The notes below the pieces were generated by a model. It ran no database searches and had not been told where the DNA came from. It saw only the letters and a list, made by a program, of their open reading frames with translations. Both the position numbers and the translations under genes were made by a program. This document shows, piece by piece, positions 4,823 through 63,976 of a stretch of DNA of 64,000 nucleotides; the first letter of the stretch is position 1, and every line of letters begins with the position of its first letter. Source of the DNA: a virus; the IMG/VR virus record IMGVR_UViG_3300047472_000155, positions 1 to 64,000 of that record, one strand, 5' to 3'.

Positions 4823-7800
4823 TTATCCCTTCCAACCAAGCTTCTTTAATCCATTTACCAATCTAGTAGTAACTAAGTCAGCACCTTTTTCATCTCCCGT
4901 TACACTACCAATATTGATGTTAATGTTGCTTCCACCACTATTAGTAACCACAGAAGGAGAAATTGATGAAACAAGTTTTCCCATGTTTGGCATGAATTTG
5001 TTTTGAATGTTTGTAGAAGGAGACATTAACTCATCTTGCAAAGCTAATATCACTTGTTCGTTTGCATCAGTATTCATCATCTGATCCATAAGTTTAGTTA
5101 ATTTATTTCCACCTCCACCAACAACACCACCTTTATGAAGAACTTGAAGACCGCTCTTATCATACCAATGACCATCAGCTTTTTTAGACAATCCAATACT
5201 TGGACCCAACTTTTCGTTTAAGGCAACAAGTTCTTTTTGTCTAGCGGCAGTTGCAGTATGCCATTCTGCTGCGTTTGCTTTCATTTGTGCTACAACAGAA
5301 GCATAGCTTGACGATGTAGTTGTTGAACCGCTTGTAGAAGTAGTAGTACCTCCATACAACGCGTTTCCACTTGAATCAAGCCAAACACCAGCGCTTGTTT
5401 TTGTAGCTCCTATACTTGAACCAAGAGCTTCATTAGCGGCTTCAAGATTTTTCTTTTCTTCCGCAGTTGCACTAGCCCATTTTGCAGAGTTTGCTTGCAT
5501 TTCTGTAATAATATCTGATTCGCTTCTAATGAGTTTAAGGTTTTCAACTACCTTTTGAAGTTGAGTTGTAACATTATCATATATTGATTGACCAACAAGC
5601 GGAAGATTTGCATCAAACCATCCTTTTAAAGTTCCAAGTTCGCTTGAAATTCCTTGAATGTTGCCTTTCTCAATTTCTGCTTTAAGGTTAGACCAATGAG
5701 TTTCATCATCTGCAATGTCTTTGAAGTATTTGTTAGCACTATCTTTATAATCTTCAATGATGTCTTTCATATCATCGTAAGATTTCCCAGTTATAGTTAC
5801 CATTTGTTGAGATGTAGCATCCCAAAGTTCAACACTCATTGTCCAAGCTTCTTTATCCGCTTCTGCTTTTTCTTCTAAATAAGTTTTTTGATCTTCTAAA
5901 TCTTGTTTTTGAGCATCGGTAGAATGGTCATCTTGAAGTTTAGCAATTTCCTTGTCCGCAGCATCTCTTTGTTCGATAAGGTCTTTGAGTTGAGCCTTGC
6001 CCTCTTTGGAATCATCTAAAGATAAACGATTGATTTTATCTTGTAACTCTTGACGACTTTGCGTCTTTGTGTTCAAGCTATCTTGATATTCAGCTTCTGA
6101 CTTGTCAAATTCAAGTTGTTTGATCTTGCTTTCAATTATCTTTTGATCTGCCTTAAGCTTTTCATCAATTCTATCCATTTCTTTTTCATGAGCTTTTTCA
6201 AGTGCATCATCTTGTTCATCAATCGCATCAATGATTGCATCCTTTTGTTTCTCATACATATCCTTAAGAAGTTCGATGGCATTGTCTGCAATATTGTCAT
6301 TGAAATCTTTTAATGCATCATTGGATTGTTTAATAGCAGCTTCAATATCCCACCATTCAAGTTTCAATGCAGCAAGTTTTTGATTGTATTCTTCAACTTT
6401 TTCAATACTCAATTTGTGACTCTTTTCATTGTCTTTGAGAATTTTACGAATTGCTACAGCCTCTTCTTCCTTTTGTTTTTGAAGAGTTTCGTTTATTTTA
6501 ATTTGTTTTATCAACTCAGCTCTATACTCTTTTGATTCTTCATCATAAGTACTCAATCTTGCAGATGATAATGCCAATTCAGCGTTTGTGCTTTCTATTC
6601 CCTTTTCATACTTATATAACGAATTATCAGCTAAATCTCCATTTAATGCATCTATTTGATCTTGCACATCTCTATATGATTGACTAAGTTCTAACGTTTT
6701 TTGAGTCAAGTCATCTGACTGAATCCCCGAATTTCTAAGATATTCAGCCTCTTCGTGCATAAGTTTTTGTTTAACTTTTAACTGCATAATTTGTTCATTT
6801 GTTTCTTTGGCATTTTTAGCAGTGTAATTAGCAGAATTTGGATCAAGTCTTGCTGCTCTATATTGAGATTGGCTTATGGCTTCATCTTTGTTTGCCAACT
6901 GATTTTCATATTGTGCCATATAACTATCAACAACGTTTCTAGCGCTAGTGAATAGTGCACTATCAACCTCAACTAATTGATCCTCAACTGATTTCTTCGC
7001 ACTATCAATGTCCTTTGAGGAAGGAGCATTTACAACTGTCGTTGTAGTACCTGTTGTTGTGGAACCTGTTTTTGTACTTGCTGAACTACTTGTAGCGTTT
7101 CCTCCTTGAGCATAACCAATAACTTTTGGAACATAGTTAAGAGTTTCGCTTTTAAAGATGTTGTCTCCAACACCACGGTTTAATTTTGCCGTATCAGCTT
7201 TTGCATTTTTTAATACGTCCCAATCTTTGCTTCCTGTAGTCTTCATAGCCCAATCGACATAACCAGGACCAGCATTATATGCCGCTAAAGCAAGATCATA
7301 AGAACCGTATTTATCATACAATTGACTAAGATATTTTGCTCCACCGTTTGCTGATTGTTGAGGATCATAAACATTTGATACACCTAATCCCTTAGCGGTT
7401 CCTGGCATTAATTGCATCAATCCTGCGGCTCCCGCACCACTCTTAGCATTAGGATTATAACTTGACTCAGCCCATGCAACAGCGTCTAATATAGATGTGT
7501 CAACACCGTTATTTGCCGCCGCTTCACTTATAATCTTTTTAATGTCTCCAGTAGACTTAGCACCAGTTCCTCCAGTATAATTTGTACTAGCAAAAGTACT
7601 TCCTCCAGATGTTGTCGTTGTTGTTGCTGCAACTAATTTGGATGGATCAGCCTTTGCTTCAAGAAGCAATGTTTTCTTTTTCTCTAAAAGTTTTACTTCT
7701 TCTGCTACCGAAGCTCTATATTCTTTAGAAGATTTAGCGTATTTACTTTGTTGTGCATGTACCTTGTCAAGAGCAGCATCAACATCATTGATAGCTCTTT

Positions 7801-41839: not shown

Positions 41840-42169
41840 GTTGCGTTCCTTCCTTACATTAGTAATTATACCATTTTATCTTTCATTTGTCAAGCATTTT
41901 TTATTACTGATCTTTCTGAGCATTGAATGTTTCTCCTTAACATGTTACTATTATACCACTTTATAATGCCTTTGTCAAGCATTATTTTTAATATTCTGTT
42001 TTCAAGGAACAATATACTATAGTTATATAGGAAAGTCTTTGGACCGCTTGGTCTTTTGTAGCTCCTTGTAAATAAGGACTTTTATTTCTTTCCCTTAACT
42101 AACTATAGTATACCATTTTATCTTTCGTTTGTCAACAGTTATTTTTATAGGACTCTAAAATCATCCCGA

Positions 42170-52477: not shown

Positions 52478-52508
52478 AAAGCGCTGGAATTATCCAGCGC
52501 TTCTTTTT
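52478..52508. terminator. Bidirectional terminator
   Basis: AAGCGCTGGA-ATTA-TCCAGCGCTT between convergent genes. Confidence 0.7.
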
Positions 52509-53041
52509 ATATCTACCTCTACATTTCCAGTTGAAGATACAGTATGAGTTACTTCCTTTACTTCATCCTCTGCAAACATCTTTCGCGCTTTCTCCATTAC
52601 CTTTAAAATGTACGTGTAACTCTCTTCTAACTCTTTACGCTCATTTGCCATGTCACGCATGATTCGTGATTGTTCTGTCAATCTCTTGTCTTGATCAATT
52701 ACTTTTTGATGTAACGTTTTATTTTGCTTTTGTAAATTTTTTAGAAGATCAACAAATCCATCCATTGTTTCTCTTACTTTATTGGCAAGTGTGAAAGATG
52801 TGTTAGATGTATATGCTTCTAATGTAGACTCATCTAGTCCGGTTTCACTTTCCGACATTAAATGTTTGTACCATCGGTTACGACACATATAGAATGTGAT
52901 GCCTAATTCGTTTGCCGCTTCTTTAAATGCTCTTGTTGCACTATTAGGATACTTGGTAACAAGCCTTCTCAGAACCGAATCTTCCTCATCTGTCCAATCG
53001 TGATTAGCACTTTTTTTCTTTATTTCCACAGAAGAGATCAC
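52490..53041 (-). CDS. RsfA-like Myb/SANT transcriptional regulator
   Basis: DWTDEED...AFKEAANEL...CRNRW, coiled coil, C-terminal Y...LKVMEKARKM as in RsfA/YlbO. Confidence 0.7.
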   Translation of the reverse strand: MISSVEIKKKSANHDWTDEEDSVLRRLVTKYPNSATRAFKEAANELGITFYMCRNRWYKHLMSESETGLDESTLEAYTSNTSFTLANKVRETMDGFVDLLKNLQKQNKTLHQKVIDQDKRLTEQSRIMRDMANERKELEESYTYILKVMEKARKMFAEDEVKEVTHTVSSTGNVEVDIKRSAG

Positions 53042-54325
53042 CCATCCCTATATAGTATTTGTTAGCCATGTTTACTAATTATAGGATACACAACTTGAAC
53101 ATATTAGTCAAGCTATTGGTAAACGGCTAAATGTGTCTAGGTATAATATGGGAAATGGTAGGTAAATATTTGGAACAGGTTTCAGAACACAGGGTACTCT
53201 ATATATCGAAAAGCTATAAAAATGTTATAACTAAGCCCCCCTACCTAGTGTGCATATAATAGATGACATTACATGGTTTTATTTTTTAACGTAGAGTAGG
53301 GTGAAAAGTAGATGTCTGAACATCTTGACGATTTTTTATGTGAAAATAATAGCATGGATATCTAATTGAAATGTGAGTACATATAAGTGGTTTACCGTTA
53401 AAGAGCAAAGTCGTCTGCGTTAAAAATAAAACGTGCGAAAATAGGGTATGTTGAGATGTGAGTATGTTTGTAGTTGTTCAGTAGTGTAATGTGATGGGAT
53501 TATAGTGTGATACAAATTGAATGGAAATAAAGTAATCGAGCGCAATTGCAGTGCCCAGGGGTATATGGAAATTGAATCCAGATCTGCATGTTATAACCTA
53601 CCCCCGGCATGTCGTGGAATTAACGTTCCGCGACATTAATCGAGAATATACATTATATTGTGTAAAATACCATATTTTGGCTAATATTTGATAATTGCTA
53701 AATAATGGATATTTTTCATTTTTTTAAAAAATTTTAAAATTTTAAAAATTGCATATATTCAAGCTCACACAACGGAGTGATATAACACCAATCGCATGAT
53801 GCAAGACACCCTCACCACTATGCACAACTATATTGCACACAATCTAATTTTATATTATTCAATTTATTACTATATTATCATCAACAATTCACATTGCAAC
53901 AATTCACATTCCCACAATATACCCAACATGCACATATATCTCACTCAATCAAATAATGCACAATATCCATGCAATACACACAATCTAATCGTCAATATGT
54001 ATACAATCCATACGATAGAGCTAGACATCAATCATAGAAATCAATCATAGACATCAATACGAGATAATCATACATAATTCAATCTAACACCATTTAATTG
54101 TATAAAATAGATGATGCACACATACATATCATGCACAATTCAATCACTCAATATTTAATTGTGCACAATTGAATCAATACCAATATAATTAATAGCCATA
54201 TAATGATATTCAATGTAATCAACTCCGATTATATTTCTAAAAACCGTAAATGCGTATATATGCAATACTATGTCAATATACCTAATATATTATGCACACA
54301 TAGGCATATATTGTATGATCTAGGA

Positions 54326-55983
54326 TGTAAGCGTTTAATTTTAAGGTATAAGGCGTATATCATCAATACCTAACAATACCATTACCCTATAGGATAGAGT
54401 GTCTTATACGCAATCCTACCATGACATATATTATGTATATTCTTACAATATAATACATATGATATACTCACTATGATATTATGTATATGTATATATCTAT
54501 ATGTATATATCTATGTGTTAATATCATATTGATAGTAATGATATGATACATACAACATGTATCTATCTATGTGATACTATCTATATGATAATATGTATGT
54601 GTATGTATCTATATGTTACTATCTACATATACATATCATATTGTTATTATCATAATGTTAGTATCTATGTGGATATATGACGATACTTGCAACATGCGAG
54701 CAATATGATATCGACCTAGCATATAGCAACGTGATATATATAGTACATACATATGAGCACTCACACATATAAGATAAAGTCAATAGGGAACATATATACC
54801 CATCTATATGCGTTACAATGCATTGTAATGGGCAAGTTGTTTACTCATTGTTTATACATTGATTTAAAACGATAGAAAGCGCTTACTTGGGAAATAGTGC
54901 ACACCTACGCCATTTGCAAACGCTTACATATTAGAAATGGACAATTATTTCCCAAAACGCATGTATAAGTATTCATTATTAGTGTATATGAAAGCGGTTA
55001 AATGCATGATTATGCATAGAAGCATACGAATGTATGATAAAATGAGGATAAAGTGCTAATATATCAATTGATCTAAATAATGGATAAGTTTTTAATTTTC
55101 AATCTAATATTGATATATGTTTGACTTATTGCTGACTGAAAGTGCTTACATACATAAAATGTAAAATATGTATGTAATTAATATGAAAACGCTTACATTT
55201 TCGGATCGCAAGATATGTAAATAAATATATAAATTACTATAAAATGTATATTTTTATTATTTAAAAAAGTCAAGTAGTAAATTGATAATTATGTGAACAT
55301 TATGTGAACATGCAATTAATCAATTGGTATAATCATTGAGATATTCCGTATAGAGTAAATACACACAATTGATCCATAGAGGGTATTAGGGTTCCGTATT
55401 TTCAATTCCACGGCACAAGTAGTGTACTTGTTAGGGGTAGAATATAAAGCCTCTTAGAAGGGCAAATAAAGCGCTTACATTTGACATACATTTATGTGTG
55501 TTAAAGTGTAGTCAAATAGCAAAATGTATAAATATACATGATATACGTTGCGTTATTGATCCGCAATAATTACCGAACATTCAAAAAAGCCTTATGTATC
55601 AACGATCTGATTCGCTAACTTTCTGATAGCTTACATAATAAATCTGATTTATCGCACATATAAAAATTTTCTATTCCCTTATAGAATAAGGGTTTTAGGA
55701 CTTATGTAAAAATATGTTTATGCATACCCGAATATAATTGTGTCTAAAATATGTACGTTTATTCATTTAAATTTTAAAAACCTATTGACATTTAAAAATC
55801 ATTTGATCTAGCATTTGCAAAACACGAACATTCTGACCAACAGTGGCATAGTTTATGAGCTAAATCCGAACATTCGAGTATATAAAGCGCTTACAATAAA
55901 ATATCCTAAAAATATACGAACATAAATTCGTATATTGACATCTGAAATAATATGTGATTTTAATTAAAATGAAAGCGTTTTAT
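54326..55983. promoter_or_regulatory. Cluster of cre-like (CcpA/LacI-type) boxes
   Basis: Nine 14-mers resembling TGAAAGCGCTTACA at 54326, 54874, 54915, 54989, 55137, 55184, 55466, 55882 and 55970. Confidence 0.6.
54421..54800. repeat. Low-complexity purine-pyrimidine alternating AT-rich tract
   Basis: TATATGTATATATCTATATG-type degenerate repeats; no ORF. Confidence 0.7.
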
Positions 55984-56089
55984 TGACAATATATGTAAAA
56001 AACATACGAACAAATGGGAACAAATTGTGAATATTGTGTGTCATATCTTTATGCACTTGACATGCAATCCTACTATGAAATAGTATGGA

Positions 56090-56805
56090 GAAGCAAACAA
56101 GACAAAACACACCTAGAGCACGAATGAGTGACCGACATTAATAGGTCGCACACGAACGGACACAATGACGGATAAGCTACCGACACACGAATAAGCCTAG
56201 CTACTAGAATTTTAGTAACTAACTTATGGTAAGTGTTAGATAAAATGAGGGTGAATAGGTTGAACACGTTATGCAATGCTAACACGCCTATGAACTATGG
56301 CGAATGACCATAGAAGAAAGGGAATGGTGAGAAGCCCAAAGCGGCATGTATGCACGAAAGGTCATTCGATATGATAACCTAGACGCTCATACATTGATTG
56401 CATTTAATATCATTGGTTCCTTGACAATCTAACGGTTTATCGCATACCTAGACTACGCCGAAAGGCAATGTCAAAAGCGATACATTGTGTGAGGTCTATG
56501 TGCCTAGTAGTGTATAGGGTTAAGGGCAACAAAATGACGAAAGGTTAGTCAATGGTACGTGCATTATGAGCGTACATGATACACATGTAAGGCATTGCGT
56601 ACATGTGTATGGCATAAACTAATTTAGTAACGTTTTGGATACCATGAGAGTAATACATGAAGGACAATGCCATGGATAGCGTACTATCGTTAACTCACAA
56701 TGTAAAAGGAATAATCGTTGTTCAAGATAGTGCGAAATTCGTAGTATCTTGAACAACGTTGTAAGCAACTAATATAATGTAAGTTAGTTGTTTACAACGT
56801 TGTAC
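56090..56805 (+). ncRNA. Candidate large ornate ncRNA / leader RNA
   Basis: Follows TTGACA at 56057; no plus-strand ORF in the track; many long-range helices, GAAA loops and two potential pseudoknots. Confidence 0.65.
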
Positions 56806-56828
56806 ATACAACGAATAAAAACATTGGA

Positions 56829-57494
56829 GTGATTGAAATGCATTTGCCACAACTTAAAGTGTTAGACCGTAAAACGATTATCAATGTACCAATTCTATGC
56901 GGCACAAAAGAATTTGACCAATATTCGGAAATTAACTCTCTTACGGCATCGGGTGAAACGTTTAAAAGTACTAGTTCAACATCAAGCAAATATAATCTTG
57001 CTTCGGTACACGCTTGGGTCAATATTGACCAATTACAAGCCGATGGAATTATTACTAAATTAGGTTTCGGAAGATGGGAAACCGAATTGTCGGAAAAGAA
57101 CGGTATACATTACACAATGAAAATTGATGAAACCGGAGAGGGAAAATATGTAAAAGGTAAGATCACTTACAATATTGTAGCGGTTGAAGTTAATGGTAAA
57201 AAATACACCGTCAAAAACGATCACAAATTGCCAAATGGCACGGAAATGCAAACAAGTTTCGAAATGACTTATAATGGTAAAAGTGCTAAAAATTCCACAT
57301 TGTTCGGATTCTTGCGCCGCATTATCTACAATGGATTACTTCAATTTGACAAGGTTGATCATCTTGAATTGATGGTAGCTAAACCTAAAACACCATCAAA
57401 ACCTAAAGCCAAACCTAAAGCGGCAAGCGTAGATATTCCAAAAGGCAAGGGTGCGGACAAACAAGAGAGTGCACAAAAAGCCGCAAATGAATGA
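56829..57494 (+). CDS. Hypothetical early protein with Lys/Pro/Ala-rich tail
   Basis: 221 aa; tail KPKTPSKPKAKPKAAS; first gene after the leader RNA. Confidence 0.7.
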   Translation: MIEMHLPQLKVLDRKTIINVPILCGTKEFDQYSEINSLTASGETFKSTSSTSSKYNLASVHAWVNIDQLQADGIITKLGFGRWETELSEKNGIHYTMKIDETGEGKYVKGKITYNIVAVEVNGKKYTVKNDHKLPNGTEMQTSFEMTYNGKSAKNSTLFGFLRRIIYNGLLQFDKVDHLELMVAKPKTPSKPKAKPKAASVDIPKGKGADKQESAQKAANE

Positions 57495-57505
57495 TGCGGC
57501 TTTTT
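57475..57505 (+). terminator. Intrinsic terminator
   Basis: AAAAAGCCGCA-loop-TGCGGCTTTTT. Confidence 0.7.
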
Positions 57506-57607
57506 GATTTTGAAACTAAATTTAAAAATGATAGTAGCTAACATTTAGTAAGCACTTAAAATGTTAGCTATTTTTGATTTTTAAATTAAAGAAAGGAATG
57601 GTAAAAT

Positions 57608-58353: not shown

Positions 58354-58430
58354 AAAGATAGGGAGATACAATATTTTGAATTGTATCTCTTAATTGTTTT
58401 CAAATTTAACACTTAAAGGGTGATAACACA

Positions 58431-59037: not shown

Positions 59038-59136
59038 AATGTTTTAGCAACCATATCAGTGATTTAAGTCACATCAGATTTAAATCACTTAATGGTTTTT
59101 AAAACCAGCAATAACACCATGACAGGAGGAACCCAC

Positions 59137-60293: not shown

Positions 60294-60388
60294 CTCAGTG
60301 ATTCATTAAGCCCTTTATATATTATAGAGGGCTTAAATGTTTTACTGAATAATACACTTTTTAAAGGAAAGAGAGAGGATGATTAAAT

Positions 60389-61217: not shown

Positions 61218-61309
61218 TTCAGTAAATGATAGTTCTCTATATGACAATAGATTATATAGGGAACAATTGATTTATTGAAGTACATACTAATGAAAATGAG
61301 GCGGTTAAT

Positions 61310-63888: not shown

Positions 63889-63976
63889 TATACTATGCTC
63901 TTTACTACATATAGTAGAGGGCATAAATACTTTTCTGAATAAGAAAAGAATTCAATAACAAAAGGATGATATAACA

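Follow-up and report, generated by a model that had tools for sequence, protein, structure and literature searches.

What is the role of the long stretch without open reading frames (ORFs) that precedes the first early gene of a large phage of the Bacillota? The phage is represented by the IMG/VR virus record IMGVR_UViG_3300047472_000155 (166,838 bp), and the window analysed here is its first 64 kb (64,000 nucleotides, nt). An earlier note, made from the letters of the window, had proposed that the stretch specifies a new large non-coding RNA or a processive antiterminator. We found that a non-coding, heavily base-paired 5′ leader RNA of ∼745 nt (56093–56837, plus strand) heads the first early transcription unit, and that this leader is a new RNA, known from six loci only. 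That it is a real, conserved and structured leader is very likely. With a probability of roughly 35–40%, we take it to be a nut-like, cis-acting antitermination platform, which would probably use the product of the first gene, an orphan protein of 218 amino acids (aa).

Evidence for a structured non-coding RNA on the plus strand

Searches of very large collections, both with protein and with DNA, yielded five further distinct loci with the arrangement of the window, all from metagenomes or raw-run assemblies, and the family is small. The six loci compared are the window, L004, L003, L006, L047 and L049; L005 and L007 are duplicates of L004 and L003, respectively. At the nucleotide level, L004 is 78% identical to the window, and L003 and L006 are ∼66% identical. 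For the two distant loci, the identity of the first-gene protein to that of the window is 54% (L047) and 38% (L049, on a 163-kb contig). All six share the same order: promoter, ORF-free leader of 740–815 nt, orphan gene, one or two intrinsic terminators and ribosome site of the next gene.

The longest plus-strand ORF between 56014 and 56828 does not exceed 37 aa, in agreement with the earlier note, which had also correctly described the stretch as richer in GC than the upstream flank (0.38–0.42 at 56000–56750 versus 0.25–0.31). Substitutions in the leader are evenly spread when counted by position modulo three (29/23/27 in comparison with L004 and 76/74/83 with L006), and most of the indels relative to L004 or L006 would shift a reading frame. 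The pattern of the adjacent gene is a coding one, with substitutions distributed 33/14/73 and all the indels in multiples of three. A hidden small ORF or a pseudogene in the leader was excluded by the ORF scan and by these substitution and indel phases. The leader is also better conserved than the gene (89% versus 82% identity between the window and L004).

RNAalifold, run on four sequences, predicted 138–186 pairs. In the 186-pair structure, 94.6% of the cells are standard pairs, and 49 of the 186 pairs show double changes, compared with 21.7 ± 3.2 when the partners were shuffled and 3–10 when they were slid by 1–3 columns; the structure was predicted from the same alignment on which it was scored. 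Minimum-energy folds of single sequences scored on the other sequences provide a less circular test, and by this test 19–28 pairs were kept via double changes (window or L004 versus L006). The check by homologue covariation suggested in the earlier note thus gave strong support for a fold. We place the RNA on the plus strand because G-U cells in the structure far outnumber A-C cells (73 versus 7). The consensus energy is −239 kcal/mol for the plus strand and −187 kcal/mol for the minus strand, and together with the G-U and A-C counts this ruled out a minus-strand RNA.

The segment 56090–56805 (716 nt) folds with −200.7 kcal/mol (z = −8.15). Most of this excess stability comes from the two terminal hairpins, after removal of which z is only −2.6, and 200-nt fold windows are strongly negative only at 56600–56900 and at the terminators. 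Thermodynamics alone makes a weak case, and it is therefore the comparative evidence that carries the claim of an RNA.

Rfam 15, run on the whole window at the gathering threshold, returned tRNAs only. When 53000–57600 was searched at E up to 10, the only matches were microRNA-like hairpin noise on 56739–56814, and the relatives L047, L006 and L049 gave nothing beyond similar noise. By Rfam 15, the leader is not ROOL, GOLLD, OLE, HEARO, raiA, a group I or II intron, a T-box or a riboswitch; membership of GOLLD or ROOL, families that the earlier note had brought up, does not apply, and the novelty of the RNA stands. The proposal of a new large non-coding RNA was right in that the element is new, large, conserved, structured, on the plus strand and at the head of the early operon. 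It is, however, a 5′ leader continuous with the first gene, because no terminator lies between the two, and probably not a free-standing RNA.

Architecture of the leader

The leader consists of three parts: a 5′ domain; a short, presumably single-stranded, boxA-like island with its adjacent hairpin and a multi-helix domain; and a 3′ cluster of hairpins before the ribosome site. The 5′ domain extends from 56093 to ∼56415. Its first hairpin (56128–56149, GUGACC/GGUCGC with the conserved loop ACAUUAA) shows three double changes and reads ACAACC/GGUUGU in L006 and L003; it is deleted in L004, and is thus dispensable there. The helix at 56182–56237 (GACAC..AAUAAG/CUUAU..GUGUU) includes the invariant 18-mer block CUAACUUAUGGUAAGUGU and is alignable in the four closest sequences only, where 10 of its 12 pairs do not vary and one has a double change. 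Several weaker helices follow. In five of the six leaders, CGAAY repeats are enriched within the first 300 nt; the enrichment is limited to this strand.

The central multi-helix domain (56480–56706) is closed by the helix 56481–56493/56694–56704. Inside it, the long-range helices 56529–36/56631–38 and 56542–54/56613–25 are stacked, and hairpins are present at 56555–75, 56580–609 and 56677–92. The second of these (56580–56609) has a 10-bp covarying stem, with double changes in seven pairs, and a GCAUUGC loop that is invariant in four sequences. Covariation was seen at 30 of the 57 pairs of the domain in five sequences, L047 included. A long-range helix closes a domain of 218–326 nt in all six loci, with other letters in L047 and L049. 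A covariance model of the domain, built from four sequences, matched L047 at the corresponding place (23 bits, E ∼0.01) and nothing else in 114 kb, and found a single copy per genome in the two complete genomes. The same model gave no match in L049, where the closing helix was located by hand.

The words named in the earlier note are all present, at or within 1–2 nt of where it had put them, and about half of its pairings hold. Compensatory changes were found for TATCGC/GCGATA and for the hairpin at 56579–56610. CCTTGAC/GTTAAGG is partly conserved, with an invariant core, and the GCC-GAAA-GGC tetraloop is present at 56457–56466, although as an insertion in the window and L004 only. Apart from the window, CGAATGACC/GGTCATTCG is kept in L004 alone, which is the closest relative. 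The same is true for ACGCTCATA/TATGAGCGT and CATTGATT/AGTCAATG, which in addition clash with covarying helices, namely AGGUUAGU/ACUAAUUU and a GUACG..CGUAC hairpin that carries an inserted stem-loop in its loop in L003. The pairing of TACATTGTG with CACAATGTA, taken earlier as crossing other helices, does covary, but it is nested and closes the central domain; it looked like a pseudoknot because of the unsupported helices ACGCTCATA/TATGAGCGT, CATTGATT/AGTCAATG and CGAATGACC/GGTCATTCG. The second proposed crossing, the loop pairing GGCATTG/CAATGCC, is present in the window and L004, weak in L006 and displaced in L003; it may form, but its register is not conserved.

Directly before the ribosome site lies the 3′ cluster of long hairpins (56716–56813; z ∼ −6.5). 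It comprises two near-perfect hairpins of ∼20 bp and a short one, built from six copies of ACAACG/CGUUGU, which makes the bases of the helices mutually exclusive. The two terminal hairpins overlap at ACAACG (56753–56758), as the earlier note had described, and both are backed by compensatory changes. Their apical parts covary, and the basal parts are invariant in four genomes. The perfect palindrome ACAACGTTGT occurs twice and is likewise invariant in four genomes. L047 and L049 have analogous clusters of different sequence at the same place. No U-tract follows any hairpin of the cluster; the sequence after 56813 is AAUAAAAAC.

A pyrimidine-rich segment complementary to the ribosome site, AUCAUCC(U)/CAUCCU, stands before or within the 3′ cluster in the five relatives and is deleted in the window phage. 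AUCAUCC precedes the cluster in L004 (∼5860–5880), L006 (∼1445–1460), L003 (∼4850–4875) and L049 (∼4850–4862), and CAUCCU is inside the cluster in L047 (∼890–900). When L047 and L049 are folded to minimum energy, this segment (UCCUUUUA, UCAUCCU) is paired with both the start codon and the ribosome site. Occlusion of the ribosome site in the window was not apparent, as the duplex energies were no better there than elsewhere in the leader.

A boxA-like island and the adjacent hairpin

boxA is the site for NusB/S10 in the rrn leaders and in the lambda nut sites. Just one island of sequence is common to all six leaders, and it resembles boxA (56415–56431, plus strand; core CCUUGACAA at 56419–56427). 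The consensus of this island is YCYUUGAMAA; it reads GGUUCUUUGAAAA in L006 and L003 and CGCCCUUUGACAAUUUA in L049. For comparison we used the E. coli rrn boxA and spacer, ugcucuuuaacaauuua (PMC2724277), and the consensus of the boxA-like rrn RNA bound by B. subtilis NusB, AUGAUCUUUGAAA (PMC13753749); a lambda-type nut boxA was sought as CGCUCUUA or UGCUCUUUA. The islands match the E. coli boxA and spacer at 10–14 of the 17 positions (12 of 17 in the window). The best of them, in L049 (14 of 17), beats shuffled sequences with p ∼0.001.

A 6-bp hairpin follows 10–14 nt past the island in all six loci. In the window it is UAUCGC/GCGAUA (56438–56482), 10 nt past the island, and its tip is the GCC-GAAA-GGC insertion. 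All 36 cells of this stem are standard pairs, and five of the six stem positions covary (UAUCGC/GCGAUA, UAUCGC/GCGGUA, UAGCAU/AUGCUA, UAUGCC/GGCAUA, UGCGGC/GCCGCA and UAACAA/UUGUUA in the six leaders). By its position shortly after the island the hairpin corresponds to a boxB; the identity of its loop is not that of boxB.

A second boxA-like word, GUUCCUUGAAAACAGAA, occurs on the minus strand at 41994–42010, just downstream of a RecD2-like helicase gene. It may be due to chance, as a control pattern gave two to five matches.

Terminators and the downstream early genes

The earlier note had placed a terminator just after the first gene, and such a terminator is present, directly after the gene, in all six loci. 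In the window there are two terminator-like hairpins on the plus strand. T1 (57475–57511) is GCCGC..GCGGC followed by UUUUUGAUUUU, with the stop codon of the gene in its loop; L004 has it too, but L003 and L006 do not. T2 (57532–57582) is AGCUAACAUUU..AAAUGUUAGCU followed by AUUUUUGAUUUUU, and ends 26 nt before the ATG of the next gene (57608). T2 is kept in L004, L003 and L006; its place is taken in L047 and L049 by canonical terminators, the sequences of which are unrelated to it. Both T1 and T2 have the stable hairpin and immediate U-tract of intrinsic terminators. The loop of T2 also contains a cre-like word on the minus strand, AAGTGCTTAC (57548–57557).

Among the loci, the next gene starts 26–40 nt after the terminator, and its ribosome site lies within ∼40 nt. 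So short a gap leaves no room for a promoter before this gene. Since no strong promoter was found on the plus strand at 57.6–62.4 kb either, transcription of the early genes further downstream must start at the promoter cluster that precedes the leader. In the downstream early region we counted 11 intergenic terminator-like hairpins, compared with 1.8 expected. Long AU-rich perfect hairpins of 12–14 bp on the plus strand lie between the small early genes (58361–58391, 59058–59089, 60306–60336, 61232–61264 and 63894–63925). The T-runs of these hairpins are not flush with the stems, so that they may be processing or stability sites and not terminators.

The first-gene protein

The first early gene (56838–57494, plus strand) encodes the orphan 218-aa protein and has a GGAG at 56825–56828. 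The GTG at 56829 was rejected as its start codon; the real start is the ATG at 56838. Searches of 5.8 and 1.8 billion proteins gave only three close and three distant relatives of the gene, and the protein has no match in Pfam or PHROG. An AlphaFold model made with nine homologues aligned is confident, with a pLDDT (predicted local distance difference test) of 80. Compared with solved folds, this model gave no Foldseek match at E <0.1 and no VIA-align Z >4.6; rows for levivirus-coat and double-stranded RNA-binding domain folds were discarded as noise. The ESM Atlas contained no usable match.

The homologues considered were P0005, P0008 and P0009, and the invariant motif of the family is YNGKSAKNSTLF. 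Two bacterial homologues, P0005 and P0009, are fusions of the same domain with an HNH nuclease at the C terminus. Because of these fusions, the sequences suggest that the shared domain binds nucleic acid. P0005 (locus L048) adjoins genes for a helix-turn-helix protein with a McrB-type N-terminal domain and for phospholipase-D-type nucleases, and at L048 no leader of this kind precedes the protein gene. Its gene, followed by T1 and T2, lies where that of an N-like antiterminator would be expected; the protein shows no similarity of sequence or fold to known antiterminators, and its C-terminal tail is lysine-rich and not arginine-rich.

Promoters and the gene-free region upstream

A σA-type promoter (56057–56086, plus strand; TTGACA, 18-nt spacer, TAGTAT; score 10/12) precedes the leader, with transcription predicted to start near 56093. 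It is kept in L004, L003, L006 and L047, and its equivalent in L049 is TTGACA-17-TAAATT. A second good σA promoter (55785–55814, TTGACA-18-TAGCAT), kept in L003, lies 270 nt upstream; if active, it would give some of the transcripts a 5′ extension with CGAACAT boxes. The TTGACA at 56421 was ruled out as an internal promoter, as it is without a −10 box in any relative.

A 3.8-kb stretch devoid of credible ORFs (53042–56837) has the leader as its right-hand end, and the position of this stretch is kept in L004 (3.75 kb) and L049 (2.9 kb). On its left is the divergent minus-strand gene of a Myb-like protein (52490–53041), and on its right is a run of small plus-strand genes with that of the 218-aa protein as the first. 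Within it are eight copies of the cre-like AAGCGCTTAC at 54327–55894 (1.6 expected across the whole window), four co-oriented copies of the PurBox-like CGAACAT (55574–55923), an AT-rich block of TATGTATATATC repeats (54470–54660) and a strongly C-rich tract (53750–54200). Both the cre-like and the CGAACAT motifs also occur upstream of the promoters of L047 and L049.

Distribution of the leader

The phage is a large, uncultivated SPbeta/PBC2-like siphophage of the Bacillota. Its large terminase is 46–53% identical to those of Brevibacillus phage Sundance and Bacillus phages vB_BcoS-136, FADO and PBC2 and to SPbeta YonF-type proteins, and the window carries 19 tRNA genes. The clade with the leader is a small group of phages of ∼165 kb. 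Blastn and tblastn against 50,697 GenBank phages gave no match to the leader, its gene or the L049 locus, and invariant 17–18-mers, scanned against IMG/VR, JGI metagenomes and GTDB genomes, found only a known relative and chance matches. Three unrelated archaeal or metagenome contigs (L010, L044 and L046) share 26 of 27 nt with 56210–56236 of the window, inside a repeated element that is otherwise unrelated. We judged this match, the flanks of which are unrelated, to be due to chance. In sequencing runs, the stretch was found in no RNA run and in one rhizosphere DNA run only, which probably represents the source sample. Our search of the literature found no description of the leader.

Proposed function and alternative explanations

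Control of elongation is indicated because a terminator follows the first gene, the downstream genes are promoter-less and the leader contains a boxA-like island. Antitermination is a plausible mechanism, and the best supported one. In the scheme that we propose, the leader would work in the manner of lambda nutL or an rrn leader, its target in cis being the very RNA polymerase from which it emerges. Host Nus factors would be recruited by the boxA-like island together with the adjacent hairpin, and the 218-aa protein would probably join them. The polymerase thus modified could read through T1/T2 into the promoter-less early genes, giving rise to a switch from immediate-early to delayed-early expression. 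The 3′ hairpin cluster probably also sets the translation, processing or stability of the message of the first gene.

Several observations weigh against an antitermination platform. To our knowledge, 745 nt is far above the size of any known antitermination RNA, and most of the structure would thus be left unexplained. In five of the six leaders the match to boxA does not reach significance (p 0.1–0.9), though the best match usually falls on the island. In addition, the folds by RNAalifold tend to have the island paired, and NusB/S10 would require it as a single strand. For the 218-aa protein, we detected no resemblance to N, Q or LoaP/NusG, nor to any solved fold. The loops of T1 and T2 are unusually large (9–12 nt), and a strict scan with a loop limit of 8 nt missed both. 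Part of the covariation statistic is circular, the structure having been derived from the same alignment, and the comparison covers only six sequences of about four lineages. Moreover, we infer the start site and integrity of the RNA and the read-through of the terminators from sequence.

It is also conceivable, though somewhat unlikely, that the leader mainly controls the translation or stability of the first-gene message, comparable to the RNase III site of the lambda N leader and the early processing sites of T7 and SP82. The long hairpins would then be RNase III or stability elements, or would help to hide the ribosome site; the 218-aa protein might bind the leader and repress its own message, and read-through of the terminators would be passive leakage. 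Such a role would suit the two near-perfect hairpins just upstream of the ribosome site with their alternative base pairings, and the long AU-rich hairpins that similarly separate the downstream early genes. It would also suit the equivalent clusters of L047 and L049, in whose folds the pyrimidine-rich segment pairs with the ribosome site, and the presence of AUCAUCC or CAUCCU before or within the cluster of all the relatives. However, this anti-ribosome-site segment is missing in the window, where the energies of ribosome-site duplexes do not stand out from those of other places in the leader. Control of the message would also leave unexplained the 600 nt of conserved structure upstream and the conserved terminator before the promoter-less next gene. 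We consider it unlikely that the structured part is set free from the message to work in trans, be it as a large, stable non-coding RNA or as a ribonucleoprotein (RNP) with the 218-aa protein. As a decoy or sponge it could titrate a host factor (an RNA-binding protein, a nuclease or a defence system), or it could form a multimeric ornate RNA like ROOL or GOLLD. In size and in the number of its helices it is comparable to ornate RNAs, invariant loops and islands (GCAUUGC, UAGUCAAUGG and AUAAAC) stand beside covarying stems, and the enrichment of CGAAY on one strand would fit a trans-acting RNA. In addition, the long 3′ duplexes could be cleavage sites, the complementary loops GGCAUUG and CAAUGCC could kiss, and the RNA would be the first and, given the tandem promoters, probably an abundant product of infection. 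Yet neither a terminator nor a known processing signal is found between the leader and the gene, the loop-loop complementarity is not conserved in L006, and no ornate RNA model shows similarity. The primary sequence also evolves fast, the leaders of L047 and L049 not being alignable by BLAST, and there is one copy per genome.

Finally, the conserved features could act as DNA: they could form arrays of operators to which a regulator of the phage or the host binds, or belong to a replication origin located in the gene-free region of 3.8 kb. The leader does end a region rich in cre-like and CGAACAT motifs (eight and four copies), its palindrome ACAACGTTGT is perfect and invariant, and the divergent neighbour is a Myb-like DNA-binding gene. 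Compensatory changes, however, keep imperfect helices that span up to 326 nt, which sites for DNA-binding proteins do not need; the strand-specific excess of G-U over A-C indicates RNA, and the helices persist in L047 and L049 despite their different sequences. A role at the level of DNA is therefore very improbable.

More speculatively, the leader could belong to a new class of large RNA that forms, with the 218-aa protein and Nus factors on the polymerase, a complex with a scaffold of >700 nt and so brings about processive antitermination, or that is cleaved at its 3′ duplexes to give a trans-acting ornate RNP neutralising a host factor. We hold this to be rather doubtful; if true, no large structured RNA before it would have had a role assigned in the early programme of a phage of Gram-positive hosts. 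Structured RNAs of >500 nt with good covariation are rare, and most are without a function. This one has a readable setting, consisting of a defined promoter, one partner gene, terminators before promoter-less genes and an island with a hairpin, which makes the question of what a large ornate RNA does amenable to ordinary reporter and in vitro transcription work. If the antitermination platform is confirmed, a lambda-like early switch in Gram-positive phages would be built on a very large RNA; Nus-factor antitermination in Gram-positive hosts is only beginning to be characterised (PMC13753749). If it is not, the family is still a new and well-delimited target for structure probing and cryo-electron microscopy.

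Comparison with known RNA families and systems

With GOLLD, ROOL, OLE, HEARO and raiA (PMC12286853), the leader shares a length of >600 nt, many helices and conserved loops, and it is phage-borne in a Bacillota-type genome with a GC content above that of the flanks. Unlike these RNAs, which are free genes near tRNAs, it is joined to a gene as its 5′ leader; no covariance model matched it at E up to 10, and only six members with fast-diverging sequences are known here.

HK022 put, Bacillus EAR and pLS20 conAn also place a structured RNA at the head of a long operon with intrinsic terminators, and pLS20 resembles the present case as a Gram-positive mobile element. The leader is, however, 5–10 times larger than put or EAR, and no matching Rfam family was found here, EAR not having been checked by name. 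In pLS20, a 456-nt 'zipper' attenuator leader precedes the protein-plus-RNA processive antitermination system conAn (PMC13401043). Common to both are a long leader with a small first gene, and complementary flanks around a long stem that permit alternative folds. The leader described here has no terminator inside it, so that it is not an attenuator of the zipper type, and the conAn RNA gene comes after the protein gene.

The island YCYUUGAMAA overlaps the core shared by the published boxA sequences of the rrn leaders, the sites of NusB/S10. It differs from them in that the match is 10/13 or 10–14/17 and significant in one sequence only, and in that it sits in the leader of a phage mRNA and not in an rRNA operon.

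The last comparison is with the pL-nutL-N-tL1 region of lambda. The differences are clear: ∼745 nt and some 25 helices here versus a nut site of 40 nt, a hairpin loop that is not a GNRA-like pentaloop, and a 218-aa protein that is predicted to be folded and β-rich and has no similarity to N. The host here is, moreover, a Gram-positive bacterium. At the level of sequence, the likeness extends over the whole layout: a strong early promoter, a leader with a boxA-like motif, a hairpin ∼10 nt further on, the first gene and a terminator before the later early genes, with long duplexes just before the ribosome site of the first gene, where lambda has its RNase III site.

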